The notes under the pieces were generated by a model that saw nothing but the letters and a program-made list of their open reading frames with translations, searched no databases and was not told where the DNA came from. Below are positions 2,768-43,740 of a DNA stretch of 51,505 nucleotides, one piece after another. Numbering within the stretch: position 1 is the first letter of the stretch; each line of letters begins with the position of its first letter. A program made the translations under genes and the position numbers. Origin of the DNA: an uncultured Gammaproteobacteria bacterium (GTDB lineage: Bacteria; Pseudomonadota; Gammaproteobacteria; SZUA-229); the NCBI GenBank assembly GCA_937998645.1, contig CALLCZ010000021.1:1-51505 (forward strand). Reading direction: 5' to 3'.

Positions 2768-3628
2768 ATGGCGAGAATATTAATAGCCGGGTGTGGTGAT
2801 ATCGGGCTTGCAGCAGGCCAGCTGCTTGCTGATGATGGCCACGATGTTGTTGGCCTGAGAAGGCATCCGCCAGCGAATGATAATAAAATCAGGTATATAA
2901 AAGCTGACCTGTCGAATCCTGCCGACCTGGAAAAGATCGACAGCGGTTTTGACCTGGTCATCTATATCCTTACGCCTGATGAACGCAGCGAACAATCATA
3001 CAGAAACGTATTCGAGTCGGGTGTTGCTAACCTGCTGAACTTTTTTTCAGAGAATAATCCCGACACAAGATTTTTATTTGTTTCTTCAACCAGTGTATAT
3101 GGCCAAACACATGGAGAATGGGTTGATGAGGACTCGGTGACCGAGCCGGACAGGATTACCGGCAAGATCATATTACAGGCAGAAAAAGCCTTTCTGGCTT
3201 ATAGCAGCAATAATTGCATCATCCGGTTTTCGGGCATATATGGTCGCGACCGAAGCCGTTTGCTTGATCTTGTGGCCAGATGTGACGAGGTCCAGTATCA
3301 ACCCGCGTATTATACAAACAGGATTCACCGCGATGACTGCATCGCTGTGTTGCGTTTTTTGTCGAACAAGATGATTGCCGGGGCGGCTCTTGAACCGGTA
3401 TACCTTGCCTCCGACGATGACCCGGCAGCGAAGTGGGATGTGTTTAATGATTTGGCCGACAAGCTCGGGGTTGAGCGACCTGAAAAGGCAATACTGCCGC
3501 AAGGCAGTGATCAAAACAAGCGCTGCAGTAACAGGCGTTTGAAACAACTGGGTTACAGCTTCATCTATAAAAGTTACCGCGATGGTTATAACTTCATCGA
3601 GCCTGGCTGCTATGGAAACACTGATTAA
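2768..3628 (+). CDS. NAD(P)-dependent SDR / epimerase-dehydratase family protein
   Basis: N-terminal Rossmann motif ILIAGCGDIGLAAG. Length and layout are typical of atypical SDRs. Confidence 0.75.
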   Translation: MARILIAGCGDIGLAAGQLLADDGHDVVGLRRHPPANDNKIRYIKADLSNPADLEKIDSGFDLVIYILTPDERSEQSYRNVFESGVANLLNFFSENNPDTRFLFVSSTSVYGQTHGEWVDEDSVTEPDRITGKIILQAEKAFLAYSSNNCIIRFSGIYGRDRSRLLDLVARCDEVQYQPAYYTNRIHRDDCIAVLRFLSNKMIAGAALEPVYLASDDDPAAKWDVFNDLADKLGVERPEKAILPQGSDQNKRCSNRRLKQLGYSFIYKSYRDGYNFIEPGCYGNTD

Positions 3629-3640
3629 TTCAGAGCTTCA

Positions 3641-5563
3641 CTAAATAATAAGCGGTGGTACCGGGCAATCGAGTATTGCTGAAATAGCCCGATAGATCTC
3701 TACTTCGTTCGAAGTTATTCTCCGGTCAGCAGTAATGCAGATAGCGCAGGCCTTGAGCAGACGTGGTTTTTCCAGTGGTTTAAGTCTTGCCAGTTTGTCG
3801 AGGGAACTGTTCAGGTCTTCCAGCTTGATGTCACTTTTTACCAGCGGTGAAATATTTTCCATACCCAGTTGCTCAATGGCTTTATTGAAAACGTCTTTAT
3901 CGCTGATACCCTGCTGCTTGCCTGAATAAACCAGAATGGATAACAGTATTGTCCACGCATCCTGCGTCTGTTTTAGCACCAGGTTTTGAGGCGTGGTCCC
4001 CGGTTTTTTGATGAACACGGGATCCAGGTGATGAAACACGATTTTTCGAATGGACCACTCGGGCAGGCTGATTTTGCTGTCGATTTCAATCAGGGTGTTC
4101 AGGTTTTGTTTGAATAATCTGTATTGATTCGCTGATAACTGATGCAGGGTCGCCAGCGCCATGTCCACGATGGGCAGGCGATATTCCTTTTTCAGTTCAT
4201 GACCGGCCTGCACCAGTTTCATGGTTTCTTCATAAACACCTGTATCAGCGGCAGATTTCAGGTGTTGAAGCTGTTCTGATTGCGCCGCCTGGTCTTTATC
4301 CAGTACCAGGAAATAGATAACCGCACGTGCAGCAAAAGGGTCGCTCACTGCAGTCGAGAATTCGGGCGGTAAATCATCGATCAGTTTACGGGCATACGCC
4401 AGATGCGACGGTGTTGGCTGCCCAATCTGATCGATGATTGTGCCACTGGTCATGGCAGCAGCAATTGCGGCCATGGTTGCAGTTTGTTGTTGCTGGAATG
4501 GTTTTTGCGCTGGTGTGCTCTCATCAGTCGCCAGATCAGCTTCTGTCGGCAATGAATAATCAAATTCCCCATTCCAGCCGGGCTGTATATTATAGATGCG
4601 TTTCTCCAGTGGCGGGTGGGTCGCATACAGGCTGCTGAGCCATGTTTTCATACCCTGGCTGAACAGCGCGTGGCTTATTTGCGCACCCGAGGGGTTTTCT
4701 ATAATCGAGCCGGTGGTATCCCCGCCGATGCGCTTGAGGGCCCCGGCAATACCGTCGGTGTTCCTGGTGAACTGTACAGCGGATGCGTCCGCAAGGAATT
4801 CGCGTTGTCTGCTGACAGCCGCCTTGATCAGGTTACCGAAAAAGGTGCCGGCATAACCGATCACAACCAGGCCCAGTCCCAGAACAGCTACGCCTCCGCT
4901 GTTTTTGGAGCGTCGTGAATGTGATGTGCTTCTTAGAATGTAATATCCAATAAGGCCGATCAGCAAAATGCCGTGGAGCAGGCCAATCAGGCGAATATTC
5001 AGCTTCATGTCGCCATTCAGGATGTGGCTGAATTCGTGGGCAATAACGCCCTGCAGTTGCTCGCGACCGAGCTTTTCAATAGCCCCTCGCGTTACTCCGA
5101 TAACTGCATCGCCTGGTTTGTAACCCGCTGCAAATGCATTAATACCGTCTTCATCGAGCAGGTATACCGGGGGGACGGGTGTGCCTGAAGCAATGGCCAT
5201 TTCTTCGACGACATTAAGCAGTCGCTGTCTTCTGAAGTCGTTATTGCCATTGACGACCAGCTCGGCATCGAGCATTTCTGCTACGCGAGCGCCACCTCCG
5301 GCGAGGGCAAGAATTTTATACAGGCTGCCAAGTGCGATGGTGATTGTTACTGCTGCGCCGATAACCAGGAATACCTGCCAGTCGATCTCCCGGATCCATA
5401 GTTCTGTATTGATACTGCCGGTCTGTTCAAGCTTGATATAGCCGAATACGAACATTACCAGCAGGTTCGTCATTACAATGAGCGAGATGACGGCAAGAGA
5501 AAACAGAACGACGAGCCGGCCGGTATTGTGACGGGCTTCATCCTGCGACTTGAAGAAATTCAT
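3641..5563 (-). CDS. M48-family (HtpX-like) zinc metalloprotease with a long C-terminal extension
   Basis: HEFSH (HExxH) motif, N-terminal and internal TM segments, and ATHPPLEKR after the protease core. A soluble tail of about 300 aa follows. The gene sits immediately downstream of lemA. Confidence 0.85.
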   Translation of the reverse strand: MNFFKSQDEARHNTGRLVVLFSLAVISLIVMTNLLVMFVFGYIKLEQTGSINTELWIREIDWQVFLVIGAAVTITIALGSLYKILALAGGGARVAEMLDAELVVNGNNDFRRQRLLNVVEEMAIASGTPVPPVYLLDEDGINAFAAGYKPGDAVIGVTRGAIEKLGREQLQGVIAHEFSHILNGDMKLNIRLIGLLHGILLIGLIGYYILRSTSHSRRSKNSGGVAVLGLGLVVIGYAGTFFGNLIKAAVSRQREFLADASAVQFTRNTDGIAGALKRIGGDTTGSIIENPSGAQISHALFSQGMKTWLSSLYATHPPLEKRIYNIQPGWNGEFDYSLPTEADLATDESTPAQKPFQQQQTATMAAIAAAMTSGTIIDQIGQPTPSHLAYARKLIDDLPPEFSTAVSDPFAARAVIYFLVLDKDQAAQSEQLQHLKSAADTGVYEETMKLVQAGHELKKEYRLPIVDMALATLHQLSANQYRLFKQNLNTLIEIDSKISLPEWSIRKIVFHHLDPVFIKKPGTTPQNLVLKQTQDAWTILLSILVYSGKQQGISDKDVFNKAIEQLGMENISPLVKSDIKLEDLNSSLDKLARLKPLEKPRLLKACAICITADRRITSNEVEIYRAISAILDCPVPPLII

Positions 5564-5583
5564 GGAATGAAATCAGTGCACCA

Positions 5584-6180
5584 CTAGAATGATACTTTGG
5601 GGGCCTGCTGAAAAGTGGCGCTGTCTTCGAATTCGAGCAGGCTTGCATCTTGCGCATGGCCGAAACTTGCGGCAAACAATACGGGCGGAAATGTCTGTTT
5701 GTAGGTATTGTATTCCATCACTGCATCGTTGAATGCCTGGCGGGCAAACGCGACCTTGTTTTCAGTGGTGGTCAGCTCTTCGCTGAGTTGCATCATGTTC
5801 TGGTTGGCCTTGAGATCTGGATAGGCCTCCATCACAACATTGAATTTGCCCAGTGCGCCGGCGAGTGCGCCTTCAGCGCCGATCAGCTCCGCAATTGCGG
5901 CCGCATTGCCGGGGTCAGAGGCGGCGGCTGAGAGTCCTTTGGCTGCGGCGTTTCGAGCTGTAATTACGGAATCAAGTGTCTCTCGCTCGTGCTTCATATA
6001 GCCTTTGGCGGTTTCAATAAGGTTTGGAATCAGGTCGTAGCGGCGTTTCAACTGAACCTCGATCTGAGCGAATGCGTTTTTGTAACGATTGCGCAAGCTG
6101 ACCAGGCTGTTGAATATGTTAATAACATAAAGAATGATCACCGCAATGATGACCAGAATTACAATCGTTGAGGTTTCCAT
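5584..6180 (-). CDS. lemA: LemA family protein
   Basis: Single N-terminal TM segment, then typical LemA sequence ([34 protein letters not shown]..). 20-nt gap to the M48 gene. Confidence 0.9.
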
Positions 6181-6283
6181 GGGCTGTTCCTGTTGGCGAG
6201 TGCGAGATGATATCTAAACAGGATTAAAGACCATATCCTGCTGGCTCGCAAGCATATGGCGCAATGGCATGCTTAACCCGGTT

Positions 6284-6736
6284 TTACTGGTCCGGCGGGT
6301 TGCCCCAGTTGTTAACACCCTTTACGCCGGGCATTAAAAACAAGACAAGATAGAAAATCAGTACCACTGCGTAAAATGCGAATAATACCAGCTGGAATTT
6401 ATTCAGTAGTTCTGCGATATGAATATTAAGCAGCATGAGGTTGTGTGCATCCAGCAGCAGTGCTGTCCATGCCAGCCAGACGCGGTTGCCCCTGATATCC
6501 AGATCATGCAGTCGCTTGATTATAGAGGGTGTCCACAGGGCCAGCAACAGTATGCTTTGCAGGCTTTTTACATAGAGGTAGAGCGTGAGCGCACCATCCG
6601 TTTGCCGAATGTACTCCCTGTTGATAATCGACAGTAATATAAACAGGCACAGCATGAAAATGAATGAATGAAGAAATTCGATTCTGTTAATACGGCCTTT
6701 GGCAGAAAGCAGGTTCTGTAAAAAGTTCTTCAACAC
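6284..6736 (-). CDS. DUF805 family inner-membrane protein
   Basis: Motifs GRINRIEF, KRLHDLDIRG and the C-terminal GVKGVNNWGNPP match the DUF805 pattern as I remember it. Several TM segments. Confidence 0.75.
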   Translation of the reverse strand: MLKNFLQNLLSAKGRINRIEFLHSFIFMLCLFILLSIINREYIRQTDGALTLYLYVKSLQSILLLALWTPSIIKRLHDLDIRGNRVWLAWTALLLDAHNLMLLNIHIAELLNKFQLVLFAFYAVVLIFYLVLFLMPGVKGVNNWGNPPDQ

Positions 6737-7840: not shown

Positions 7841-9922
7841 TTATCGGAAGTCCCAGCGGTAACCGAGCATAAAGAATAAATTGCTATTGCCAAGCGATTG
7901 TCCATTAATGTCTTCGCTGGTGTCATCAAAACCAATTTCAAAATCGAAGCGAACTTTGTTCAGGTACTGGTAATCTGTTCTGAGCAGTGCTCTGATTTTG
8001 CTCTGTGTGCGGCCATCCGAGCTTGTGCGTATGTCGTATTGCAGGCGTGGATTGATACGCCAGTCCCGGGAGACGGGAAATCTGGTGTTGGCAATAAACG
8101 CCCAGGTATCTGATTGTTCGGTATCCAGGTAACGAATGCCGAGTACGCCTGTATCTCTTTTTAAGATCAGGTTATTACCGACGATCTGCGCGCTGATAAA
8201 ATAATCTGTACCGGTAGAGGGTGTTGCGGGAACACCACCGGAGGCTTCGGTTCCGTCAACCTTGGAGAAAGTGATGTCGGCATTGGCCTGAAACTTCTCG
8301 CTAATAGGTTGAGAGCCGCCTAGTGTGATCGTTGCACTATCGGCAGTGCGGTCGCGTGCAAGTTGATATATCTGCTCAATGCTTAGTGTTTGCTGGAGTT
8401 CCTCAATAGACTCTGCTGTCTGTCCTATGAGTGCATTGCTTGTAGCCAGTACCGGCGCTTTGCGAAGAAATGCGTTCATGTAAGCAGTGCGGCCTCTGTC
8501 GAAGAGCAGGTTGGCGTTGAGTTGCAGTATGTTGATTTCATTGAAATTCAGATCATAATCAATCATGCCGAATATTGACTTGGTTTTGTCGTTGTAACGA
8601 ATTTCAGTACCGGTACTGGTGCGGTCGTCGAGGCCATCGATATCCTGGTCGAAAAAGAACAGGTTCATATCCCAGTTTTGAAGAAATGTTCCTGTTTCAA
8701 ATATAAACCCATAGAAAGACTTGTGTTGATTGATGGAGGTCTTGTTGTCGATATCTACCGGATAGCCCGCAAGTGCATTCAAGCGCATATTGGGTGTGAA
8801 CTGGTAGCCGGCCGAAATTCCGTCAAATCGTTTCAGGATGCCGCCAATGCGCAATGCCTGCCGGCCAAACCTGCCGGATGTTCCGCTTTTTCTTGAGCTC
8901 AATTCATAAAATGCTTCGATGAACCTGAATGAGTTTTTGTCATCGTCATCAAGAAAGTCATAAGTGTCATCTGCAGAGAAACGAAAGTTCTGGTCGAAGT
9001 TGGGTGTCTGATAGTTTGTGTTAAGGTCAAGAAACGTAATCAGTTGAGACAGATTTGTGAATGATCCATCGACACCATCCACTTCAGCAATGTCTTTGCG
9101 ATAATACTGTGAAAAGCTCCCGTACGTTGTTATCTTTCCTTTCTCTTCCTTTTCATCATCTTCCACGTGGATCTTGTCTCTTGGACCCTTGGTGGATGTC
9201 AGCAGGCCGGTAAGGCGTTGCTTGACACGTATGGCGCCCTCTCCTGTCGGATATTTTTCAAGATAGTCCTCATAGATAGCAGCGGCATGTGCGTTTTGCC
9301 CGTTGCGTTGCCTCGACAGACCCAGCAGTTCAAGCGCTTCACTGGAATATTTGTGGTCACCAGCGGCTATGATTGCCGTTAAGTAACGAATAGCCTGCGA
9401 GTAGTCCTGTTTCTTGAAATCGTTTTTTGCGCGTTGCATCAGGCTGTCAAGCTGCTTATCAGTCAATGATGATTTATTGCCTGCCGATGTTTGCTTCTTA
9501 GTCTTGGTTGTTCGCTTTTTAGATGATGTTTTTGAAACCGGTACAACCAGTGCCGTGTTTGGTGCGGCTTTAACTTCGCTTGCGCTTGCTTCTCTCAGCC
9601 ATGCGCCAGGATAAAGCTTTTCAACATCATTCAATACCAGAACGGCTGCCTGACGGCTGCTGAAAAAGCCCAGATTCAGCCGTTCATATGGCTTGCCTTT
9701 AACTGTAGTTTGAGTGACATATACAGTACGCCCTTCAAGTAGCGGGCTTTTCTTCGGCTGCCATTTAAGATTGGTACCTGGCGCGGAGGCAAGCACGATA
9801 ACGTAAGAAGACGATTTGCCTGCAGCCTGAGCATCACTCGATACAAAGAGTTGAATGATGAGTAAAGCGGTGCAAATTAAGCCCGTTAATAAGTGTTGGC
9901 GCAACATTGTAGGTGGCGTCAT
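7841..9922 (-). CDS. Outer-membrane protein: signal peptide, SPOR-like domain, Lys/Thr-rich linker, TPR region, C-terminal beta-barrel
   Basis: Signal peptide ..VSSDAQA/AGK. SPOR-like stretch YVIVLASAPG..YERLNLGFFSSRQAAVLVLNDVEKLYPGAW. TPR-like helices QDYSQAIRYLTAIIAAGDHKYSSEALELLGLSRQRNGQNAHAAAIYEDYLEKYP. The last ~430 aa have alternating hydrophobic residues and end MLGYRWDFR. Confidence 0.7.
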   Translation of the reverse strand: MTPPTMLRQHLLTGLICTALLIIQLFVSSDAQAAGKSSSYVIVLASAPGTNLKWQPKKSPLLEGRTVYVTQTTVKGKPYERLNLGFFSSRQAAVLVLNDVEKLYPGAWLREASASEVKAAPNTALVVPVSKTSSKKRTTKTKKQTSAGNKSSLTDKQLDSLMQRAKNDFKKQDYSQAIRYLTAIIAAGDHKYSSEALELLGLSRQRNGQNAHAAAIYEDYLEKYPTGEGAIRVKQRLTGLLTSTKGPRDKIHVEDDEKEEKGKITTYGSFSQYYRKDIAEVDGVDGSFTNLSQLITFLDLNTNYQTPNFDQNFRFSADDTYDFLDDDDKNSFRFIEAFYELSSRKSGTSGRFGRQALRIGGILKRFDGISAGYQFTPNMRLNALAGYPVDIDNKTSINQHKSFYGFIFETGTFLQNWDMNLFFFDQDIDGLDDRTSTGTEIRYNDKTKSIFGMIDYDLNFNEINILQLNANLLFDRGRTAYMNAFLRKAPVLATSNALIGQTAESIEELQQTLSIEQIYQLARDRTADSATITLGGSQPISEKFQANADITFSKVDGTEASGGVPATPSTGTDYFISAQIVGNNLILKRDTGVLGIRYLDTEQSDTWAFIANTRFPVSRDWRINPRLQYDIRTSSDGRTQSKIRALLRTDYQYLNKVRFDFEIGFDDTSEDINGQSLGNSNLFFMLGYRWDFR

Positions 9923-10012
9923 GTATATGATTTTGTTGTTAGATCAGCTTGTTATTTTTTATTATTTTGGGTATGCCATTTCTATTGCTGACTGGCGCAT
10001 CCTGGTAGCTTG

Positions 10013-11047
10013 CTACCAGGAGCCAGCACTTGCACGGTGCTCATTGCTCTGGATGCCGCCTGTCAAATGACAGCTGCCACTGCAATCTGCAACATCGCTG
10101 ATCGGTAGTGGTACGTCGCCAACGCCCTTATGTGAGTCCGGTACATAATCGTCGGTATGGCATGCGGCACATTCCGGCTGGTATGCAGGGAATGGCCATG
10201 CAATAACCTGGTTGTTTGTAGTATGGCAGTCAACACAAAGTACGCCGGTTCTATGATCACCAGGGTAATCAGGTGAATCATGCGTGAAGTGGGGCAGTGG
10301 TAACCACCCCACCGTTGTGTGGCAGCGATTGCAGTCCAGGGTTGTTACAAAGTGTGTCGTTGATTTCCCTGTTGCAATTGAGCCATTATGGCAGCTCAGG
10401 CAAAGACCCGTTGCGTAGGTGTGGTCAAAGCGTGCGCCTCTCCATGTGTTGGTGTTGTGGCAGTTGTCACACTGTGCAATGGTGAAAACATGCTGCGGTG
10501 ACTTGCCTGTTGCTTTAACACCGTTGTGACAGGAGTCGCATGAGCCTGAAACGGACCCATGATCAACCCGGCCTACTCGGCTGAAGGTAATCGTGTTGTG
10601 GCAGTCTTCGCATGTGGATGATGCGGTTATGGTTATATGCGATGGCGAAATTCCAATGGCAATGGAGTTGTTGTGGCAGTTCTCGCATGGGGAAAATATG
10701 CCGCTATGATCGAATCGTGCGCCTAGCCAGGTGTCAGTTGTGTGACAATCATCGCAAATATTGCTGCTGTTCATGTGCTCTGGATGTTTTCCTGGCGCAC
10801 GGCTGTTGTTGTGACAAAGGTAACATTCAAGAGGTGTGCCCTTGAACATCCCGCCAATGTGGCAGCTGGAGCAGTCTAAAAACTGATGCTTGCCGGTCAA
10901 TGGGAATCCGGTCGTGAAATGGTCGAAGCTTTCCACGTCATCAGCAGCATGTGTTGATGAATTAACAAACAGCAATGAACCTGACAGCAAAAGAAGATAT
11001 AGCGCTGTTGTCATGATGCCGATTAATCTTGAGTTGTTCTGGTTCAT
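10013..11047 (-). CDS. Multihaem c-type cytochrome (11 CXXCH plus one CX3CH), secreted
   Basis: Signal peptide MNQNNSRLIGIMTTALYLLLLSGSLLFVNSSTHA. I counted the CXXCH motifs by eye: CSSCH, CYLCH, CDDCH, CENCH, CEDCH, CDSCH, CDNCH, CLSCH, CNRCH, CVDCH, CAACH, plus CSGSCH. The pattern C..CHNG..A.GK...H repeats, in the style of paired-CXXCH domains. Confidence 0.92.
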   Translation of the reverse strand: MNQNNSRLIGIMTTALYLLLLSGSLLFVNSSTHAADDVESFDHFTTGFPLTGKHQFLDCSSCHIGGMFKGTPLECYLCHNNSRAPGKHPEHMNSSNICDDCHTTDTWLGARFDHSGIFSPCENCHNNSIAIGISPSHITITASSTCEDCHNTITFSRVGRVDHGSVSGSCDSCHNGVKATGKSPQHVFTIAQCDNCHNTNTWRGARFDHTYATGLCLSCHNGSIATGKSTTHFVTTLDCNRCHTTVGWLPLPHFTHDSPDYPGDHRTGVLCVDCHTTNNQVIAWPFPAYQPECAACHTDDYVPDSHKGVGDVPLPISDVADCSGSCHLTGGIQSNEHRASAGSW

Positions 11048-11061
11048 GTGATGCGTACCGG

Positions 11062-12690
11062 TTATCTATTGATTTTGGCGTTCTTGAAGCTTTTGGTGCT
11101 GTGGCATTGTCCGCACTGTCTGCCGAATTGCCGATTATGAATATCCTGGCTTCGATGACAGAAAATACAGTCGCGAGAAGCTTTCAGTTTCCCTTTGGAT
11201 TTTGTTCTATGGCAATCGTAGCAGCCCACTTCCTCGTGAGCGCCGTCTATCTTGAAACGTGTTGCCTTGTCATGATCAAACAGCCAGTTCTCCCATGAAT
11301 TCGGGTTGTGACAGGTTTCACAGTCAGTGCCAAGGCGGGTCTTGTGAACATCATCGCCAGTGTGACATGCATTACATTCACTATTGGCCGAGCTGTATAT
11401 TGAAGTTAGATGACATTCTTCACATTGAACTGCGGCGTGCATGCCGATAAGCGGAAAGCTGGACAGGTCATGGTCGAAGAATACGTTGTCACGCCAGCCT
11501 TTCTCGTTATGACAATCGTTACATTGTTTACCCTGCTTGCCCTGGTGTACATCATCTTTTTTGTGACACTCAATACAGGCGGTCTTCAGCTTGTCTTTTT
11601 TAGCTTTAAGATTGTCCTTTTTTTCCAGGTCAAGGTCGCCTTTGTGGCAATATGTACAGGACAGGTTTTTGTGCTTGCCCCTGAGTGGAAAGTCTGTTTT
11701 TTTGTCATGATCGAATTTGTGCTTCTGCCATGATTTGGAATTGTGGCAGTCTTTGCATTCCTTTCCATTTTTACCTTTATGGCTGTCATCGAATCTATGG
11801 CAGCTATAACAATCGGTTGGAAGTTTAACTTTCTTGTTCTTGTTCTTTTTTAATTTATCGGGTGTGTGGCAACTGTTGCACGAAGCTTCCTTATGTTTGC
11901 CATATAACGAAAAATCAGTATTTTTATTGTGATCAAAAGACATTTCGTCCCATCGTTCGGGTGTGTGGCAGGTATCACACTTTTCCCCATAACCGCCGCG
12001 GTGGATGTCCTGGATCTTATGGCAGCCTATACATTTACTCGGCGTGTCTTTGTATTTCTGGTTGATATGGCAGGAAGTGCAGTTGGTTTCTTTATGCGCG
12101 CCTTTGAGCGGGAAATCCGTTTTCTTGTCATGATCAAATTCAGACAGCTTCCAGCTGGATGCAGAGTGGCAGTCACCGCATTTTTTTCCATTTTTTCCAT
12201 CGTGGGCGTCCGATTCTTTATGGCAGGAATAACAATCCTGCGGTGCTTCAGAATATTTCTTGTCTTTTTCGTGACATGCCGTACAGCTCGTTTTGATGTG
12301 CATGCCTTTGAGCAGAAAATCGGTTTTGGAATGATCGAAAGTCGACGGATTCAATAAAATGACTATTGCATCCCGTCCTTCATGCTCGGTATGGCAGTGT
12401 TTGCAATTGGTTCTTACTGTTTCCGGCAGTCGCCCATGAAAGCCTTCCTTATTGCGCACATCATCAAGTATGTTCTTATGATCATGGCATTTCATGCACA
12501 GTTGTCCCTGCATTGCCTTGTCTGATGTGTCGTGGCACTGGTCGCAGTCTTTTTCGTATTCCTGGTGGGCCTTGATTACAGGGCCGGGCATCAAAAGCGA
12601 TTCCAGTGATTCTGCATTGCTGGCAGATGTTATGAGCATGACCGAAATCGCAAGCATGAGCCTGGTCCAGACAGGGTAATGAGGTCGCAT
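11062..12690 (-). CDS. 21-haem c-type cytochrome built from seven tandem trihaem modules, secreted
   Basis: 21 CXXCH motifs counted by eye. The module FDH.K.TDF.L.G.H....C..CH ... C..CH ... C..CH repeats. I set the start at ATG 12690 (MRPHYPVWTRLMLAISVMLITSASNA, a signal peptide) rather than at 12735. Confidence 0.92.
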   Translation of the reverse strand: MRPHYPVWTRLMLAISVMLITSASNAESLESLLMPGPVIKAHQEYEKDCDQCHDTSDKAMQGQLCMKCHDHKNILDDVRNKEGFHGRLPETVRTNCKHCHTEHEGRDAIVILLNPSTFDHSKTDFLLKGMHIKTSCTACHEKDKKYSEAPQDCYSCHKESDAHDGKNGKKCGDCHSASSWKLSEFDHDKKTDFPLKGAHKETNCTSCHINQKYKDTPSKCIGCHKIQDIHRGGYGEKCDTCHTPERWDEMSFDHNKNTDFSLYGKHKEASCNSCHTPDKLKKNKNKKVKLPTDCYSCHRFDDSHKGKNGKECKDCHNSKSWQKHKFDHDKKTDFPLRGKHKNLSCTYCHKGDLDLEKKDNLKAKKDKLKTACIECHKKDDVHQGKQGKQCNDCHNEKGWRDNVFFDHDLSSFPLIGMHAAVQCEECHLTSIYSSANSECNACHTGDDVHKTRLGTDCETCHNPNSWENWLFDHDKATRFKIDGAHEEVGCYDCHRTKSKGKLKASRDCIFCHRSQDIHNRQFGRQCGQCHSTKSFKNAKINR

Positions 12691-12715
12691 CTTGAGTAAT
12701 TCGAGCCTGCTGCTG

Positions 12716-13636
12716 TCAGTACATATGTACTGCAAAAATGTGGATAACAGCTGTTATTATCATCATGATGAATAGTGGCAGGTGAAGAATATGCCACAGT
12801 GAAAACAGCCGCTCGTACATACGAAGAGCGACAATTTTTCGCAGTGTATCTGTATAACGCGTGATAAACTCTTTGGCGGCCGCGCTGTCTGGTAGTGTTG
12901 TTGATATACTGTCATTCTGGCTGCTGTTTAATAAATGCTTGAACTTTGACTGTAAACGTTGCGCATCAAAAGTCAGTGTTATGCTATGCAGCAGGCTCAT
13001 CAAGATGCCTGTATATTGCTGCAAGGCCTTGCTTTCCATTGCTGACATCATCTTATTCAGGTTTGAGTTCAGCTTGTAAATGTACAAAAGCTCCGTATTT
13101 TCGGTTTCAAGCTCTTGCTTAAGCTCATTGAGCGTAATGCGCTTGCCATATAAGCCATGATGAATATGGGTATATATATACCTGCCAATCAGCCCACTGC
13201 CCGCTACCAGCAGCATGCTGATTAATGCGACTGAGCTGTTGGCTGATCCAAAATGAAAATTGGAGTGATACAGAATCAATACGGGTCCGATAATGCCAAA
13301 CAGCATGTGGATGCCGAACCAGTATCTAACTGGCACCATGCGCGACAGAATTGACAATCTTTTGCTCAGGGGATAGAGCAGCACTAATAGCATCAGGCTT
13401 CCACCGACAATACCCAATGCATAGCCGGTACCGTTCTCAGCGCTGAGATAATTGCTATCGCGATTAAGCCAGCCGATTATAAGTACTGCTATTACACTGA
13501 TCGTAAATAAATGCTTATACAGAAACGTGAATGTCGCAGCCAGCAATTCAAACATTTTTGTTCCTTGCTGTACCGGATTACTGGCCACAAAATCCCGGGC
13601 TGTAACGTCGTCATTTATGGTGTCTGTATTGCTCAT
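12716..13636 (-). CDS. His-rich polytopic inner-membrane protein (about 5 TM segments plus a central helical soluble segment), first gene of the cytochrome operon
   Basis: Hydrophobic segments lie at about residues 29-57, 71-90, 106-124, 135-155 and 280-306. His clusters sit in or next to these TM segments (WFGIHMLFG..LILYHSNFH; YTHIHHG; LWHILHLPLF..VIHIFAVHMY). No family recognised. Confidence 0.7.
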   Translation of the reverse strand: MSNTDTINDDVTARDFVASNPVQQGTKMFELLAATFTFLYKHLFTISVIAVLIIGWLNRDSNYLSAENGTGYALGIVGGSLMLLVLLYPLSKRLSILSRMVPVRYWFGIHMLFGIIGPVLILYHSNFHFGSANSSVALISMLLVAGSGLIGRYIYTHIHHGLYGKRITLNELKQELETENTELLYIYKLNSNLNKMMSAMESKALQQYTGILMSLLHSITLTFDAQRLQSKFKHLLNSSQNDSISTTLPDSAAAKEFITRYTDTLRKIVALRMYERLFSLWHILHLPLFIMMIITAVIHIFAVHMY

Positions 13637-13683
13637 GAGGGTTCTCGTGGGTCTATGCGAATGGTTGGTATAATTTTCCCAAA

Positions 13684-13697
13684 GGCATTATAATTGC
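13684..13697 (+). promoter_or_regulatory. Possible sigma-54 (-24/-12) promoter element facing the 13919 gene
   Basis: aGGCATtataaTTGCTt compared with consensus TGGCAC-N5-TTGCW. The GG to GC spacing is correct (12 nt). It lies about 225 nt upstream of ATG 13919 in an AT-rich divergent region. Confidence 0.25.
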
Positions 13698-13918
13698 TTG
13701 CCTGTAGTAGTCTAGTAAATTTGTAAGAAAAACCGGAAAATTGTCGATAAATTTTCCATATTATGTCGAGAAAATTTGCACAATATCTGCTATATAAACA
13801 AATAATCAATAAGTTACAGATTCTTTCTTTGTGCAATCAATGATCATGCTTTGTTCGATGATATTTTTGTCGGTGCAGTATTGTTGCGGCATAGAATTCT
13901 TCAAGCAGGATATGCTAC

Positions 13919-15217
13919 ATGACGTCTGAAATATGGCTCTATTCATTGCCGTTGCTGGTTATTTTCAGCATATATTTATGGAAGCGAACAGGTAGGCATC
14001 GCACCAGTAGGAAAATTCTTGAACAGGCAGTTGCTGCGGGCTTAACCGAGCCTGCCTCTCTCCACCCGGTCATAGACCACGTCAAGTGCCTGGGATGTGC
14101 AAGCTGCGTAAAGGCGTGCCCTGAAAATAATGTCCTGGGTGTGATTCATGGTAAAGCCCACCTGGTTGATCCGACCCATTGCATCGGTCACGGGGCATGC
14201 AAGAAAGCCTGTCCGTTCAACGCCATCGAGCTTGTATTTGGTACCGAGAAGCGAGGCGTTGATATTCCGCAGGTGAATGAGGATTTTCAGAGCAATGTTC
14301 AAGGTATCTATATTGCGGGTGAGCTGGGTGGCATGGGCCTGATACGAAATGCAGTTACCCAGGGTGTGCAGGCTGTTGAATCCATCCGCAAGATTGATGG
14401 TATTGGAAGCAAGGATAGGCTTGATCTGGTTGTCGTTGGCGCAGGGCCGGCGGGTATAGGAGCATCTCTGGCGGCTATGTCAGCCAAACTTAAGTTTGTT
14501 ACCGTGGAACAGGAATCGATGGGTGGGACTGTATCGCATTACCCTCGGGGTAAAATTGTGATGACTGCACCGGTCAAGCTACCTGTTGTAGGGAAAATGC
14601 AATTCAGGGAAACCACCAAGGAACAGTTGATGGAGTTCTGGGAAGAAGTTGTAAAATCAACCGGGTTGAAAATTAGTGACAACGAGCGTGTTGAAAGTAT
14701 TGAACCCGACGGCGCCGGTTTTAAAGTTAAAACAACACAAAGTAGTTACCAGACAAGGGCGGTATTACTGGCGATTGGTCGACGTGGGACACCCCGCACA
14801 CTCGGTGTTCCGGGAGAAAATAAATCAAAGGTAGTCTACCGCCTTATAGATCCGGAACAGTACCTGAATCAGCATGTTCTGGTTGTTGGCGGCGGCGATA
14901 GTGCTCTGGAAGCCGCGGTCAGTATTGCGGAGGAGGCGGGAACAACAGTAACTTTGTCATACAGAAGTGAAGCATTCTCCCGTGCCAAGGAAAAAAACCG
15001 TGTCAAGGTGGCGGATGCGCAAAAACAGGGCAGGTTGAATGTATTAATGAGCTCAAGTGTAAAACAGATATCCGATGACAAGGTCGTCATCGAAGCAAAC
15101 AATAAAGAAATTACTATCGATAACGATGCAATAATTGTATGCGCCGGTGGCATTCTGCCTACACCATTTCTCAAGTCCATCGGTATTGAAGTAGAAACCA
15201 AGTTTGGAACTGCATGA
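13919..15217 (+). CDS. Membrane-anchored 2x[4Fe-4S] ferredoxin domain fused to an FAD/NAD(P)-dependent (thioredoxin-reductase-like) oxidoreductase
   Basis: N-terminal TM segment followed by a basic patch (WKRTGRHRTSRK). Two cluster motifs, CLGCASCVKACP and CIGHGACKKACP. Dinucleotide folds VVVGAGPAGIGASL and VLVVGGGDSALEAA. Confidence 0.82.
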   Translation: MTSEIWLYSLPLLVIFSIYLWKRTGRHRTSRKILEQAVAAGLTEPASLHPVIDHVKCLGCASCVKACPENNVLGVIHGKAHLVDPTHCIGHGACKKACPFNAIELVFGTEKRGVDIPQVNEDFQSNVQGIYIAGELGGMGLIRNAVTQGVQAVESIRKIDGIGSKDRLDLVVVGAGPAGIGASLAAMSAKLKFVTVEQESMGGTVSHYPRGKIVMTAPVKLPVVGKMQFRETTKEQLMEFWEEVVKSTGLKISDNERVESIEPDGAGFKVKTTQSSYQTRAVLLAIGRRGTPRTLGVPGENKSKVVYRLIDPEQYLNQHVLVVGGGDSALEAAVSIAEEAGTTVTLSYRSEAFSRAKEKNRVKVADAQKQGRLNVLMSSSVKQISDDKVVIEANNKEITIDNDAIIVCAGGILPTPFLKSIGIEVETKFGTA

Positions 15218-17196
15218 TGAATAGAATTACTTTCCTGCCATTGATGTTATTGCTGGTAGTGTTTGTGGCCGATGCGGCGACTCTGGCAGATGCGAAAATG
15301 GCCATTCGTACCAGGGATTTTGCGAAAGCAGTAAAAATACTCGAACCGTTGTCGCGCAAAGGTGACAAAGAGGCCCAATACCATCTTGCAGTTATGTACC
15401 GTAATGGCCAGGGTGCTCGCGAGGATGCGAAAAAAGCAGCTTACTGGATGAGTAAATCGGCCAGTCAGGGTTATAAACGTTCACAGTATTCATTGGGCGT
15501 TCTCTATGAAGAGGGTATTGGTGTAAGTCAGAATCTGGAAAAAGCGGTTTACTGGTACAAGGCTGCTGCCGGGCAGGGATACAGCAATGCGGAAAAGCGC
15601 TTAGACAGTCTTGAATCTGGAGATACAGTGATTGCAGGCGATATTAAACCAGGCGAAGCGCTGGTACTGGCGGTGAGTTCTGATGATATAAAAGCCGCTG
15701 AGACATCACTGAAGGCCGGTGCAAATGTGAATGCAGCTGATGAATACAGGCGGACGGTTTTGTTTGATGCTGTCAGTCGAAAAAATGTAAAAATGGTGAA
15801 GCTGCTGCTGGATAATGGTGCTGATGCTAATGTCGTAGACACCTATAAAGACAGGCCATTGATGCTGGCTGCTGCAAATGGGGATATGACCATTGTCAGG
15901 GAACTGATCAATCACAAGGCCGGAGTGGGATATAAGGATGCAAACGGTAATACGGCTCTGATGCTGGCATCTGCAAAAGGGCATAAGGATGTTGTAGCTG
16001 TATTGTTGAAAAGCAAGGCATCACATAAACCCAAAAACCGTAATGATGAAAACGCTATCGCGCTGGCTGCAAAAGGAAAGCATCATGCCACTGTGAAATT
16101 ACTGGAAAATTATGGGGCGCGCTTGCCTGTTGCACAAAAAGATGGCCTGACGGCGACACAGAAGCTGGCGGCAATTAATAAGGGTGCCAGTAGTGTATAT
16201 AAAAACTGGAGTCCGCTGATGATCGCCGTTTGGCGAGGACAGGATGATGTTCTGGCCTTGTTGTTAAAGAAGGGTGCGAATCCTAACCAGCAGGATAATG
16301 AGGGCCATACTCCGCTGACTCGCGCGGCTATGCAGGGATATGATGATGTTACCAGTCTGCTTATTGCTGCAAAAGCTGATGTCAACAAGAAAGATAAAAA
16401 TGGTAAGACACCACTGATGTGGTCCGCAGAATATGGTAAGGAGAATGTTGCAAAAATTCTATTGAAAGCCGGCGCTGATGTGAATGTGGTCGCTAACAAG
16501 AAGCAAACTGCACTGTTCTACGCAATTGCTGGCAGTCATGAAGACATTGCCGTTATGTTGCTCGATACTGGTGCAAGACCGAACAATGTACTGATTGATG
16601 GTAAAGGCGAATTAATGATGGCATCAAGGAGTATGTCATTGACAACAGTCGAACGGTTGCTGCGTGCGGGTGGAAATGCTGGTTTACGTGATGAGAATGG
16701 TCATGATGCGCTGTGGTTTGCTGTTGAATCCGGTAATGCTGACCTGGTCAGGCAGATGCTGGTGAGCTACAAGCAAATAAACAGAAAGGATAAGCATGGT
16801 AACTCACTGCTGCATAAGGCAGCCATATCGGAAAATCCGGATATTATTGCACTTTTAATTGATAAGGGTATTGATATTGATGTTAGTGCTGTTGATGGGA
16901 ACACGCCATTAATGCTTGCAGCAAGCAGGGGTAATGCGGGTGCAGTCAAGGTGTTGATAGCAAAAGGCGCCAATGTGAACGGTAAAAACAATGTTGGTAA
17001 TACGCCGCTTATTCTATCTGTCCTTGCAGACAGCAAGGAGTCAGTGAAAATATTGCTGGATTCGGGCGCAGATATTGATATAAGAAACAATAAGCGTGAG
17101 CAGGCGATTAACCTGGCTGAACTGAGTAAGGAAACATCTATTTTAAAGATGTTGAATCAACACAAGGAAGGTAAGAAGCTGTTTGGTATATTTTAG
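15214..17196 (+). CDS. Periplasmic Sel1-repeat plus ankyrin-repeat protein
   Basis: ATGA overlap with the upstream stop. Signal peptide MMNRITFLPLMLLLVVFVADA. 2-3 Sel1 repeats (AQYHLAVMYRNGQG.., SQYSLGVLYEEGIG..). Then about 13-15 ankyrin repeats (G.TPLM.AA..G....V..LL..GA..N). Confidence 0.85.
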   Translation: MMNRITFLPLMLLLVVFVADAATLADAKMAIRTRDFAKAVKILEPLSRKGDKEAQYHLAVMYRNGQGAREDAKKAAYWMSKSASQGYKRSQYSLGVLYEEGIGVSQNLEKAVYWYKAAAGQGYSNAEKRLDSLESGDTVIAGDIKPGEALVLAVSSDDIKAAETSLKAGANVNAADEYRRTVLFDAVSRKNVKMVKLLLDNGADANVVDTYKDRPLMLAAANGDMTIVRELINHKAGVGYKDANGNTALMLASAKGHKDVVAVLLKSKASHKPKNRNDENAIALAAKGKHHATVKLLENYGARLPVAQKDGLTATQKLAAINKGASSVYKNWSPLMIAVWRGQDDVLALLLKKGANPNQQDNEGHTPLTRAAMQGYDDVTSLLIAAKADVNKKDKNGKTPLMWSAEYGKENVAKILLKAGADVNVVANKKQTALFYAIAGSHEDIAVMLLDTGARPNNVLIDGKGELMMASRSMSLTTVERLLRAGGNAGLRDENGHDALWFAVESGNADLVRQMLVSYKQINRKDKHGNSLLHKAAISENPDIIALLIDKGIDIDVSAVDGNTPLMLAASRGNAGAVKVLIAKGANVNGKNNVGNTPLILSVLADSKESVKILLDSGADIDIRNNKREQAINLAELSKETSILKMLNQHKEGKKLFGIF

Positions 17197-17600: not shown

Positions 17601-18185
17601 CTAGAATAATTCAGTTCGTCCTATGGAGAGGGATGACTGTTTTACCGGGTTTTCCTTTTCCAGTTCAGTGCGGAATTTTGCAACATCCTGTTTTAATTGA
17701 AGGATTTCGTTGATAAATTCCGGATCTTCTTTATGGTCCATGTGCTTGAATCTTTTCAGGGCGCCATCCAGTCTTTTGAACATTGCATGTATGCTCAGGG
17801 TTCTGTTCTGTGCATGCTTCGTTAGTTGTTGCACAATGTCATCAAACTGAAGAGCGGTTACGATTTTAACCTGATTGGCTCTATAATGTTTTTCAGATCG
17901 CTTGCACTGTTCTAGCAGTTCTTTATTGTTTGCGTTATTCAACTGCAAGGCCAGGGTGACCATGGTGGTTTGTTCAATAGCCAATATGTTCATTTCATCA
18001 AAGCTGGAGCTTAGCGACCTTGTTGCATCGCGAACAAGATTTCTGACATGCTCGAGTTCTTCGTGAATATATTGATGTTCTCTGATCATTAAGCAGGTCA
18101 GGTCATCTGCCAGTTCCGAGAGCAGGGGGCTTATATCTTTTATTGTTGTATTTGTGTTATTCATCGGCAGTTGGATAATAGTCAA
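17601..18185 (-). CDS. Hypothetical protein, candidate remote CheZ-type CheY-P phosphatase
   Basis: Last gene of the cheA-cheB operon. The start is either TTG 18185, overlapping the cheB stop, or ATG 18164. Predicted all-helical. Motif ALQFDDIVQQL resembles the CheZ active-site region (DFQDLTGQ, D-x3-Q). The C-terminus is ..IGRTELF. Confidence 0.5.
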   Translation of the reverse strand: MTIIQLPMNNTNTTIKDISPLLSELADDLTCLMIREHQYIHEELEHVRNLVRDATRSLSSSFDEMNILAIEQTTMVTLALQLNNANNKELLEQCKRSEKHYRANQVKIVTALQFDDIVQQLTKHAQNRTLSIHAMFKRLDGALKRFKHMDHKEDPEFINEILQLKQDVAKFRTELEKENPVKQSSLSIGRTELF

Positions 18186-19264: not shown

Positions 19265-19266
19265 TG

Positions 19267-20774: not shown

Positions 20775-20782
20775 GGGTATTT

Positions 20783-21187: not shown

Positions 21188-21220
21188 AGTTATTCTCCGA
21201 ATGATGCCATGCTGCAGTGG

Positions 21221-23218: not shown

Positions 23219-23273
23219 AGGTGCTGTGTATCCACCGTTGATATTTTTTATACGCGCCCTGTGGCGGTGGTAA

Positions 23274-23633: not shown

Positions 23634-23814
23634 GTGTTTTGCCCGGTACTTTGCTTTTGTGACTACAGAATAGTATAGCCAGTGATACTGATATCGCATT
23701 AGAACATGTGAAATAGTGTGTATGATGAAAATACCGGGTAGCCGGGCAGTTTGCGGAAACAATTGCCTTTCAGAAAGCAGGTGCTAATCTTCGTTGTATA
23801 ACAAAAGCATTTTA

Positions 23815-24931: not shown

Positions 24932-24951
24932 GGTTTTCTTCAGGTGAGAAT

Positions 24952-27827: not shown

Positions 27828-27885
27828 CATATTGCATATCAATTAACGACATTACCAGCACCAATAGATATACTTAAAGCTACCT

Positions 27886-43735: not shown

Positions 43736-43740
43736 CAGCT

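Follow-up and report, generated by a model that had tools for sequence, protein, structure and literature searches.

A predicted PCC3-type porin-cytochrome cluster that travels with iron-sulfur flavoprotein and Sel1/ankyrin genes across phyla

The window, a 51,505-nucleotide stretch of DNA from an uncultured marine gammaproteobacterium with Thiotrichaceae/Thiotrichales MAGs as its closest relatives, carries two divergent operons (Table 1). The original prediction described four genes that follow one another on the minus strand with 25, 14 and 90 nt between them, and this layout was reproduced from the open reading frame list when MHC21 was started at 12690. The MHC21 reading frame itself runs from a TTG codon (11062-12735); the ATG at 12690 gives a product of 542 aa, and other gene callers gave 531 aa. 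On the opposite strand, the start of the Sel1/ankyrin gene overlaps the flavoprotein stop codon (ATGA). The region between the operons is tentatively taken as the probable shared promoter region of both: promoter-like hexamers were located at 13714-13687 on the minus strand and at 13665-13694 and 13777-13806 on the plus strand, and over the region as a whole such hexamers were not enriched over shuffles.

Table 1. Positions of the genes and the divergent region within the window.
Feature	Position	Strand	Size
OMP (outer-membrane barrel protein)	7841-9922	minus	693 aa
MHC12 (second cytochrome c)	10013-11047	minus	344 aa including signal peptide
MHC21 (periplasmic 21-haem cytochrome c)	11062-12690	minus	542 aa including signal peptide
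IMP (PCC3 inner-membrane protein)	12716-13636	minus	306 aa
Divergent intergenic region (IMP operon/flavoprotein operon)	13637-13918		282 nt
Membrane-anchored iron-sulfur flavoprotein	13919-15217	plus	432 aa
Periplasmic Sel1-repeat and ankyrin-repeat protein	15214-17196	plus	660 aa with signal peptide

The first gene of the minus-strand operon had been predicted to encode a His-rich protein with about five transmembrane (TM) helices, and a script found five hydrophobic helices and 13 histidines in it. WX3HX13H motifs were located at residues 106 and 281 (TM3 and TM5) and SGLIG, an SGXXG motif, at residue 147 (TM4); a cytoplasmic helical domain of approximately 120 aa lies between TM4 and TM5. 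His110, His124, His285 and His299 were invariant in 36 representatives with a mutual identity below 50%. Of these, His110 and His285 are placed on the cytoplasmic side, and His124 and His299 on the periplasmic side. An AlphaFold2 (AF2) model of the protein had pLDDT 83.6 and pTM 0.76. Judged from motif spacing and the invariant histidines only, the IMP is a putative dihaem b carrier. No Pfam or NCBIfam family and no significant relative among PDB sequences was found for it, and Foldseek returned no PDB structural relative of the fold; NOX, STEAP and b561 structures were not matched in the PDB fold search. There was no match to Pfam Ferric_reduct, with one of the 36 members at E 0.024. Script counts also showed that neither the IMP nor the OMP contains a CXXCH motif.

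The same counts agreed with the predicted haem content of the two cytochromes, with 21 CXXCH motifs in MHC21 and 11 CXXCH plus one conserved CX3CH (CSGSCH) in MHC12. At one motif per 26-29 residues, this density cannot have arisen by chance. Both proteins have cleavable Sec-type signals and, as originally noted, no lipobox, Cys being absent near the cleavage site. Seven trihaem (c7-like) units in tandem make up MHC21, with one haem per 25.8 aa, and Pfam recognised eight cytochrome c7 stretches in it (Cytochrome_C7, 5e-29); the TIGR04257 nanowire trihaem domain was matched weakly, and no solved structure was matched significantly in sequence. Its 24 non-motif histidines are enough for bis-His ligation of all haems; all-bis-His haems are typically of low potential. 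MHC12 is rich in Ser, Thr and Gly, contains six cytochrome c7 stretches (Pfam) and is built from repeats of about 23 residues. The CX3CH motif lies in a C-terminal module, ...PDCAGCH...SELRDC[SA]G[SA]CH...EHR.S.GG[W/F], that was present in most of 47 complete second-cytochrome tails from several clades. Since this module recurs across clades, the CX3CH is not a chance motif. The PCC3 literature labels the second cytochrome "extracellular"; MHC12 carries an ordinary Sec signal, with no known route across the outer membrane, and we infer its surface exposure.

The predicted architecture of the last gene product, a signal peptide followed by a C-terminal beta region, was recovered in the AlphaFold2 model (pLDDT 78.8). 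This model comprises the signal peptide (residues 1-33), a SPOR-like beta-alpha domain (39-123), TPR helical repeats (155-244) and a barrel of approximately 22 beta strands (263-692) with a helical insert (494-524); MtrB, by comparison, has 26 strands. Weak TPR matches were found in Pfam and NCBIfam, the OMP profile matched the CpoB TPR domain at E 1e-4, and some OMP homologs contain Pfam SPOR (PF05036) or are named SPOR-domain proteins.

The flavoprotein begins with an N-terminal TM helix with basic residues behind it. Two domains come next, one ferredoxin-like (Pfam Fer4_10, a Fer4 dicluster, 2e-10), the other resembling the FAD/NAD(P)H domain of thioredoxin reductase (Pyr_redox_3, 6.7e-44). 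The basic residues after the single helix place the domains in the cytoplasm. The ferredoxin-like domain contains the motifs CxxCxxCxxxCP and CxxHxxCxxxCP, so that one FeS-binding motif holds an invariant His. The nearest PDB sequences were YpdA/Bdr and TrxR-type ferredoxin-NADP reductases, and a redox-active CxxC Cys pair was absent from the FAD/NAD(P)H domain. The neighbouring protein matched Ank_2 (8.7e-102) and Sel1 (2.8e-18) in Pfam and is probably a scaffold or assembly factor.

The module was compared with about 200 other genomes, and 142 distinct IMP-seeded loci were taken from a collection with one genome per species. The original prediction called for the four genes to co-occur in other genomes: a cytochrome adjoined the IMP in 128/128 loci, with exactly 21 haems in 103 of them, and an OMP homolog was present in all 76 loci with enough flank, across phyla; in 70 of these 76 the OMP gene lay downstream of the second cytochrome on the same strand. 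The number of haems in the second cytochrome ranged from 5 to 57 in these loci, and reached 67 in flavoprotein-seeded loci. The four genes therefore stood as a module, but their limit as the conserved unit did not, since two divergent genes at 13919-17196 had been missed. The flavoprotein was encoded less than 10 kb from the IMP in 54 of 57 fully flanked loci, in at least four different arrangements relative to it, and the Sel1/ankyrin protein was present in 46 of the 57. In the reciprocal, flavoprotein-seeded scan the IMP was within 10 kb in 31 of 34 loci and not in the other three. The flavoprotein was the best conserved part: its median identity of 63% exceeded that of the IMP (42%) and of the OMP (35%), and its mean column identity across phyla was 71%. 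The Sel1/ankyrin gene was absent from the Gallionellaceae/Burkholderiales and Woeseiaceae versions of the module, and the genes flanking the six-gene unit were kept in the closest relatives only. These results showed that the conserved module comprises six genes (7841-17196) and not four, and that the flavoprotein and Sel1/ankyrin genes travel with PCC3 across phyla; no mention of a flavoprotein neighbour of PCC3 was found in the literature searched. Carriers included lithoautotrophs (Thiotrichaceae, Chromatiaceae, Ca. Thiodiazotropha, Thiobacillaceae and Nitrospinaceae) as well as heterotrophs and methylotrophs (Limimaricola, Paraglaciecola, Undibacterium and Methylotenera).

PCC3 has been defined by an IMP of about 300 aa with five TM helices, SGXXG on TM4 and two WX3HX13H motifs, a repeat-built periplasmic cytochrome with 21 haems, a barrel protein and a second cytochrome that is rich in Ser, Thr and Gly and variable in haem number (PMC5566968). 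The published haem ranges are 21-27 for the periplasmic and 10-35 for the second cytochrome, and the counts of 21 and 12 fall inside both. All four proteins aligned over most of their length with those of Sideroxydans/Gallionella clusters; the E-values against Sideroxydans sp. L227 were 4e-40 (IMP), 8e-115 (MHC21), 2e-39 (MHC12) and 2e-55 (OMP). The same gene order and homology were found in Gallionella L188 and Amphritea L165, the latter with the 21 + 63 haems published for Amphritea atlantica. Because the IMP motifs are exact, the haem counts are in range, the gene order is the same and all four proteins are homologous, the region is, as judged from sequence, a PCC3-type porin-multihaem-cytochrome cluster sensu He et al. 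2017; the prediction of a PCC3/PCC4-type module was thus borne out, with all PCC3-defining features present. The same four components, order and IMP motifs occur in the PCC3 of Sideroxydans lithotrophicus ES-1 (Slit_1446-1449 and Slit_0867-0870) and in copies 1 and 2 of Sideroxydans CL21, and in Sideroxydans/Gallionella MAGs the flavoprotein and IMP genes diverge, as here. In contrast, identity to the Gallionellaceae proteins was only 25-42% (in the comparison with Sideroxydans sp. MAGs), and the lineage of the window is a marine gammaproteobacterium with 47% GC that has the additional Sel1/ankyrin gene. To our knowledge, no PCC3 has been purified or deleted so far. The earlier statement that none has been characterised holds in the literature searched, where PCC3 is called "functionally unverified" (bioRxiv 10.1101/2025.02.27.639646).

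Like MtrCAB, MtoAB and PioAB, the cluster encodes a multihaem cytochrome and a companion outer-membrane barrel in neighbouring genes. The differences from Mtr that had been pointed out were upheld: an MtrA/DmsE-family decahaem was missing (35.3 bits, with the cut-off at 192), as was a lipoprotein MtrC, and the barrel carries the extra SPOR-like and TPR domains. In addition, no match to the MtrB family was obtained, the periplasmic wire has 21 haems, and a dedicated, putatively b-type inner-membrane protein stands in place of CymA. MHC21 resembles the Geobacter GSU1996 family and PpcA as a c7-like trihaem array, but has seven units where the Geobacter polymers have four, and the genomic partners differ. 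The Hmc/Tmc complexes of sulfate reducers have a similar layout (large periplasmic multihaem cytochrome, membrane cytochrome b and cytoplasmic FeS protein) that likewise joins periplasmic and cytoplasmic redox pools. However, homology to Hmc was limited to c3-type haem repeats, and Hmc has no outer-membrane component and a cytoplasmic partner that is HdrD-like, not a flavoprotein. PCC4 (He et al. 2017) shares the IMP motif pattern, and in its subgroup II an FeS-protein gene adjoins the IMP gene; it differs in that its periplasmic cytochromes are three small ones, with 4, 5 and 10 haems, and that a second large cytochrome is missing, and its IMP was reported to have no significant sequence homology to the PCC3 IMP (PMC5566968).

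We favour a reading (rough probability 0.62) in which the six genes would encode a trans-envelope wire that, in the cytoplasm, ends at NAD(P)H via FeS and FAD, and not at the quinone pool alone. The flavoprotein, with its single helix as membrane anchor, would exchange electrons with NAD(P)H via FAD and two FeS clusters, and the IMP would pass them through the inner membrane by way of a stack of two bis-His b-type haems, with His110/His285 on the inner and His124/His299 on the outer side. MHC21 would be the periplasm-spanning wire, and MHC12 would be held at or inside the barrel through its conserved C-terminal module. The SPOR-like and TPR domains may anchor the barrel to peptidoglycan and to this wire, with the Sel1/ankyrin protein as a putative accessory periplasmic scaffold. 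For this path we infer haem b binding, protein-protein contacts, the link to NAD(P)H and the direction in which electrons move. The flavoprotein could alternatively be a maturation or regulatory partner, gene linkage being no proof of a place in the path.

The components could have been read in other ways. That the OMP belongs with TPR-porin exporters such as AlgK-AlgE/PgaA/BcsC/PelB, in an incidental cytochrome neighbourhood, was suggested by its N-terminal TPR and C-terminal barrel and by AlgE and PelBC among the Foldseek matches. These matches were no better than those to generic porins, ushers and TonB-dependent receptors (TM-score 0.2-0.5), in line with the original expectation of no grouping with polysaccharide exporters; with no glycosyltransferase or polymer-synthesis gene in the conserved module and an OMP homolog in every informative locus, this reading is very improbable. 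It is scarcely credible that the cytochromes belong to a known soluble respiratory system (Nrf, Hao/Otr or Hmc): the weak NCBIfam matches to HmcA (34.7 bits) and the DmsE-family decahaem are far below the curated cut-offs (400 bits for HmcA), Pfam gave only generic c7/c3 repeats, and an NrfB-like match had E 0.95. No catalytic CXXCK haem motif was found by script, nor any PDB sequence relative at E < 0.01. We also consider it unlikely that both cytochromes stay periplasmic, storing electrons or wiring the IMP to soluble redox partners there, with the SPOR-TPR barrel as an envelope anchor or a channel for small redox substrates and not a cytochrome sheath. The plain Sec signals without a lipobox or known secretion signal are consistent with that arrangement, as are the lower strand number relative to MtrB, the helical insert that could plug the barrel, and the Roseobacter-group versions, which consist only of the IMP and an adjoining 18-haem cytochrome. 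However, the barrel gene regularly follows that of the second cytochrome, and the C-terminal module is constant while the haem array varies, as would be expected of a protein that is anchored at one end and can lengthen outwards at the other; a periplasm already spanned by the 21-haem protein would also have difficulty accommodating arrays that exceed 1,500 residues.

In the published model (He et al. 2017, PMC5566968), extracellular Fe(II) or reduced minerals donate electrons that pass through the conduit and the IMP to the quinone pool; the flavoprotein would then be an accessory, such as an NAD(P)H-making side branch or a repair or assembly enzyme. PCC3 is common among Gallionellaceae iron oxidisers and many carriers are lithoautotrophs, and this model is possible, if doubtful. 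A flavoprotein more conserved than any conduit part is hard to square with a dispensable accessory, and inward electrons from Fe(II) have to move uphill in redox potential, and against the membrane potential as well, to reach NAD(P)+. In Sideroxydans ES-1 the PCC3 genes were down-regulated on Fe(II) compared to thiosulfate (PMC8788666); they were not induced on magnetite, the Slit_0867-0870 proteins were largely undetected, and Slit_1446/1447/1449 levels were similar with or without solid Fe(II) substrate (PMC11429942). In Sideroxydans CL21, by contrast, the IMP gene of PCC3 copy 2 rises during iron oxidation (bioRxiv 10.1101/2025.02.27.639646), which favours inward flow.

Within the NAD(P)H-linked reading, we consider an outward flow somewhat more probable than the uptake from Fe(II) that the literature assumes. 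The ES-1 expression data and the heterotrophic and methylotrophic carriers are hints in this direction, as is the presence of enough His for all-bis-His haems; against it, many hosts are sulfur, iron or nitrite lithotrophs, to which electron uptake would be useful. Eukaryotic and bacterial ferric reductases and NOX enzymes, which combine an FRD dihaem domain with a FAD/NADPH domain, similarly carry a His pair with 13-residue spacing on each of TM3 and TM5 and have a flavin/NAD(P)H partner, and their route, in which electrons from NAD(P)H pass a flavin and two stacked haems before reaching the outside, may apply here too. In the window the components are separate polypeptides, and the flavoprotein resembles TrxR/YpdA rather than FNR and has two FeS clusters, so that the likeness is one of analogy and not of membership. 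Outward flow would resemble a split version of this ferric-reductase/NOX logic, in which cytoplasmic reducing power would be placed onto Fe(III)/Mn(IV) minerals, humics or partner cells.

The ORF calls upheld the arrangement described in the original prediction, with four co-directional minus-strand genes that encode an inner-membrane protein (IMP), a 21-haem cytochrome (MHC21), a 12-haem cytochrome (MHC12) and a barrel protein (OMP). The intergenic gaps were 25, 14 and 90 nt, given an MHC21 start at the ATG at 12690, which yields a good signal peptide. This start is ambiguous; the ORF that begins with TTG at 12735 overlaps the IMP gene, and public gene calls give either 542 or 531 aa. Script counts returned the motif numbers originally reported, 21 CXXCH motifs in MHC21 and 11 CXXCH motifs plus CSGSCH (CX3CH), making 12, in MHC12, and both cytochromes were confirmed to lack a lipobox. 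Pfam matches in the two cytochromes were to c7/c3-type repeats only (eight stretches in MHC21, six in MHC12). MHC21 consisted of seven tandem trihaem units, with 25.8 residues per haem and 24 spare His residues, enough for bis-His ligation of every haem, and a PDB sequence search with this protein gave no match. The repeat units of MHC12 were approximately 23 residues long; it had 15 spare His residues, and its commonest residues were Ser, Thr and Gly. On the opposite strand, the stop codon of a flavoprotein gene overlapped the start of a gene encoding a Sel1/ankyrin protein (ATGA). A promoter and terminator scan showed no enrichment over shuffled sequences.

Genes of the module and AF2-derived regions of the barrel protein (residue numbers for the regions)
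Feature	Position	Strand	Length	Basis or remark
IMP	12716-13636	-	306 aa	ORF call
MHC21	ORF 11062-12735 (TTG start); ATG at 12690	-	542 aa from ATG	ORF call
MHC12	10013-11047	-	344 aa	ORF call
OMP	7841-9922	-	693 aa	ORF call
Flavoprotein	13919-15217	+ (divergent from IMP)		TM helix, ferredoxin-like domain, FAD/NAD(P)H domain
Sel1 and ankyrin repeat protein, secreted	15214-17196	+ (divergent from IMP)		
OMP signal peptide	N-terminal			AF2 model
OMP beta-alpha domain	39-123			AF2 model
OMP TPR helices	155-244			AF2 model; closest PDB sequence CpoB, E 1e-4
OMP barrel, ~22 strands	263-692			AF2 model
OMP helical insert within barrel	494-524			AF2 model

Motifs, haem counts, homology and gene order identified the predicted PCC3/PCC4-type porin-cytochrome module as PCC3. 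The PCC3 definition of He et al. 2017 (PMC5566968) has four parts. Two are multihaem cytochromes, one termed 'extracellular' and the other periplasmic (median of 21 haems); the third is a porin, and the last is an inner-membrane protein of ~300 aa and five TM helices, of which TM4 carries SGXXG and TM3 and TM5 carry WX3HX13H. Later Gallionellaceae work gave 21, 24 or 27 haems for the periplasmic cytochrome and 10-35 for the other, ranges into which the 21/12 pair fits. The ~5-TM protein originally described was of the PCC3 size and had five hydrophobic helices by hydropathy, backed by the helices of the AF2 model; it carried WFGIH-x13-H at 106, SGLIG at 147 and WHILH-x13-H at 281. His110, His124, His285, His299, S147, G148 and G151 were invariant in 36 IMP representatives of less than 50% mutual identity. 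MHC21 corresponded to the periplasmic cytochrome in its haem number, its repeats and its low residue-to-haem ratio, MHC12 corresponded to the second cytochrome in being rich in small residues and variable in haem number (5 to 67 among homologs), and the adjacent barrel was provided by OMP.

All four proteins had homologs in loci from Sideroxydans sp. (L227), Gallionella (L188) and Gallionellaceae (L189), which are loci other than the ES-1 type locus, with E values of 4e-29 to 5e-126 and a gene order of IMP, 24-haem cytochrome, 13-25-haem cytochrome, OMP. In the Sideroxydans locus, the IMP, 24-haem, 13-haem and barrel proteins were matched at E 4e-40, 8e-115, 2e-39 and 2e-55, respectively. An Amphritea locus had 21 + 63 haems, the same numbers that were quoted for Amphritea atlantica by He et al. 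2017. These results support placing the module, from a marine host, within PCC3, a predicted type that is so far uncharacterised and has been called functionally unverified (bioRxiv 10.1101/2025.02.27.639646). In the PCC3 model, the second cytochrome is predicted to be extracellular and to have a role in extracellular electron transfer.

IMP-seeded scans of a collection with one genome for each species gave more than 545 matching stretches; the matches listed came only from marine and alphaproteobacterial relatives, and 142 distinct loci were kept. The link to the Gallionellaceae was obtained solely via a flavoprotein-seeded scan, which matched loci of Sideroxydans sp., Gallionella sp., Gallionellaceae, Methylotenera, Amphritea, Bradyrhizobium and Ca. 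Thiodiazotropha. Co-occurrence of the four genes in other genomes, which had been named as a test, was observed. A multihaem cytochrome lay directly downstream of IMP in 128/128 of the kept loci with enough flank (exactly 21 haems in 103, 18 in 14), and a barrel-protein homolog was present in 76/76 loci; in 70 of these its gene was downstream and had the same orientation. The second cytochrome was found in 66 of these 76 loci, with 5 to 57 haems, and had up to 67 in flavoprotein-seeded loci; a C-terminal module containing the CX3CH motif (...PDCAGCH...SELRDC[SA]G[SA]CH...EHR.S.GG[W/F]) was retained, while the haem array ahead of it expanded and contracted among homologs. The IMP family comprised ~2,400 clusters at 50% identity, and the hosts of the module included sulfur-oxidising symbionts, iron oxidisers, nitrite oxidisers, methylotrophs and marine heterotrophs. 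A search of a plasmid collection gave one weak and uninformative match, to an Emticicia plasmid.

Several loci varied in composition. One MAG (M2_maxbin2_scaf2bin.326) carried two complete six-gene copies on different contigs (L021 and L024); Sideroxydans ES-1 and CL21 are likewise reported to have two copies of PCC3. In one subclade (L082, L085, L092, L129 and L148), an extra 26-haem cytochrome of ~830-1,117 aa was encoded directly beside the ankyrin gene (positions ~3,000-6,500 of each locus). Roseobacter-group loci, from Jannaschia and Limimaricola isolates (L103, L104, L109 and L123), had IMP and an 18-haem cytochrome with no second cytochrome adjoining; a barrel homolog and the flavoprotein were encoded 5-9 kb upstream.

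The conserved module is larger than the four genes first recognised; it has six, including a highly conserved FeS-flavoprotein. The flavoprotein gene was less than 10 kb from IMP in 54 of 57 fully flanked loci (in 42 it was upstream and divergent, in 6 upstream and co-directional, and in the other 6 downstream of the barrel gene), and the ankyrin gene was present in 46 of the 57. Reciprocally, 31/34 flavoprotein-seeded loci (9-kb flanks) had IMP nearby, at a median distance of ~700 nt. The flavoprotein was also the best conserved component, with a median identity to the window protein of 63%, followed by MHC21 (45%), IMP (42%) and the barrel protein (35%); in Gallionellaceae and Burkholderiales loci it was kept and the ankyrin protein was absent. 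Its single N-terminal TM helix was followed by basic residues, a ferredoxin-like domain with CxxCxxCxxxCP and then CxxHxxCxxxCP, and a FAD/NAD(P)H domain that resembles thioredoxin reductase but lacks the redox-active Cys pair. The His of the second motif (residues 88-99) was invariant in ten sequences from several phyla; the Gallionellaceae flavoprotein had CxxSxxCxxxCP as its first motif instead. Such unusual ligands of the FeS clusters may indicate the site at which electrons exit.

Neither He et al. 2017 nor the paper on the Gallionellaceae pangenome, nor the wider literature searched, was found to mention a flavoprotein, a ferredoxin-domain protein or an ankyrin protein as a partner of PCC3; an FeS gene that adjoins the PCC4 IMP was reported by He et al. 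2017 (PMC5566968). A Rosetta-stone argument from flavoprotein-IMP fusions was rejected, as the longer IMP homologs carried SPOR/TPR extensions and not Pyr_redox. Among six proteins of note (P0286, P0319, P0452, P0474, P0214 and P0451), some were IMP homologs with N-terminal SPOR or TPR domains, the same types as in the barrel protein. Two IMP-only proteins were named 'pyridine nucleotide-disulfide oxidoreductase' by NCBI, a name that was probably carried over from the neighbouring gene.

A new point of this analysis is that no structural relative of IMP was found in the PDB. Its AF2 model (pLDDT 83.6, pTM 0.76) gave no Foldseek match in the PDB at E ≤ 0.001, cytochrome b561 being at E 3.3, and the protein was not placed by Pfam or PDB profile searches; these searches gave nothing significant for an assignment to NOX, FRD or b561. 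A likeness to ferric reductases was proposed by He et al. 2017. The window IMP did not match Ferric_reduct (PF01794, two-haem cytochrome clan), and the 36 members gave sub-threshold matches only (DUF4405 in 5/36, E ≥ 0.01; Ferric_reduct in 1/36, E 0.024), so that the likeness is one of His spacing and not demonstrable homology. With the FRD domain of ferric reductases and NOX, HX13H spacing alone agreed.

Comparison with other known systems concerned the barrel protein (AF2 pLDDT 78.8) and the two cytochromes. The beta-alpha domain of OMP is termed SPOR-like on the grounds that Pfam SPOR, or a SPOR-domain name, is found in some homologs; the match of the OMP profile to the DamX SPOR domain was not significant (E 0.42). 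Foldseek returned generic barrels only (porins, AlgE, ushers and TonB-dependent receptors, TM-scores 0.2-0.5), which indicates a barrel that is not MtrB-like and has no specific likeness to exporters, and no MtrB structure was among the best 50 matches listed. A TPR-porin polysaccharide exporter of the AlgE/PgaA/BcsC/PelB kind was rejected, since AlgE and PelBC (TM-scores 0.2-0.4) matched no better than unrelated porins; furthermore, the conserved neighbours of OMP were cytochromes and the flavoprotein, whereas polymer-synthesis genes would be expected of an exporter. Unlike MtrCAB/MtoAB, the module had no decahaem MtrA/DmsE (TIGR03508 scores of 35.3 and 24.6 bits against a cut-off of 192.2) and, with no lipobox in either cytochrome, no lipoprotein outer cytochrome. 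An MtrB-family model was absent among NCBIfam matches at E ≤ 0.1. Membership of the Nrf, Hao or Otr enzymes was likewise rejected, with a NrfB-like match at E 0.95, no Hao or Otr matches and no CXXCK motif. The original prediction had set the module apart from Mtr for want of a decahaem MtrA/MtrC pair and a lipoprotein cytochrome, and would have been undermined by a barrel clustering with polysaccharide-export porins or by cytochromes of the Nrf, Hao or Otr families; it withstood these comparisons.

From the components, motifs, homology and linkage observed, an electron transfer chain can be proposed. It would link NAD(P)H, through the FAD and two FeS clusters of a cytoplasmic, membrane-tethered flavoprotein, to two bis-His haems b in IMP, and these in turn, through the 21-haem periplasmic wire, to the 12-haem cytochrome, which would be located at the barrel or inside it. 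Anchoring of the barrel, both to peptidoglycan and to the wire, would fall to its SPOR-like and TPR domains, and the ankyrin protein would serve as a scaffold. The flow could run either way. Several points favour outward flow, namely the NAD(P)H-type partner, the capacity for bis-His ligation of all haems, the inclusion of heterotrophs and methylotrophs among the hosts, and data from Sideroxydans ES-1, in which PCC3 genes were down-regulated on Fe(II) (PMC8788666) and PCC3 proteins were not induced on magnetite (PMC11429942). Inward flow is favoured by the many lithotrophic hosts and by the up-regulation of one IMP gene in CL21 cells that oxidise iron. Electron transfer from Fe(II) all the way to NAD(P)+ would be uphill on two counts, redox potential and membrane potential.

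With flow outward, PCC3 could be a 'split NOX' extending across the entire Gram-negative envelope, and not a quinone-linked Fe(II) oxidase, in which a NAD(P)H-FAD-FeS protein feeds a new-fold dihaem membrane cytochrome and, through it, a 30- to 90-haem surface wire; this tentative reading is given a probability of about 0.3. If true, it would provide quinone-independent discharge of cytoplasmic reducing power in many phyla, to minerals, humics, oxygen (yielding extracellular superoxide) or partner cells. PCC3 is among the most widespread predicted extracellular-electron-transfer systems and is without an assigned function. Were the flavoprotein link functional, the cytoplasmic end of the wire would be NAD(P)H and not the quinone pool, which would change the expected flow direction, energetics and ecological role and could explain why expression in Sideroxydans fails to follow Fe(II) oxidation. 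Culturable PCC3 carriers suited to direct tests are named by the survey, candidates being Limimaricola variabilis CECT 8572, Paraglaciecola sp. MB-3u-78, Undibacterium sp. Ji22W and Amphritea atlantica.

A chemosensory cluster (17601-28467) lay directly beside the module and encoded CheB, CheD, CheR, CheA, a CheY-like protein, CheW, two MCPs and a Wsp-like response-regulator-GGDEF protein. It was rejected as part of the module and placed outside the conserved unit because it was common to the closest relatives only (L001 and L008). On the other side (3641-6180), a LemA-family gene preceded that of a large M48 peptidase, a protein with several TM helices; this pair was also kept in near relatives only. 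A MoxR-type AAA+ ATPase, a 330-aa protein without assignment and a TgpA-like transglutaminase were encoded in series at 28503-32411, a common, poorly understood triad. The region 38001-46000, which covers GlnE, a class IV aminotransferase and an HldE-like kinase/adenylyltransferase, had a GC content of 0.53-0.55, compared to 0.43-0.50 elsewhere.
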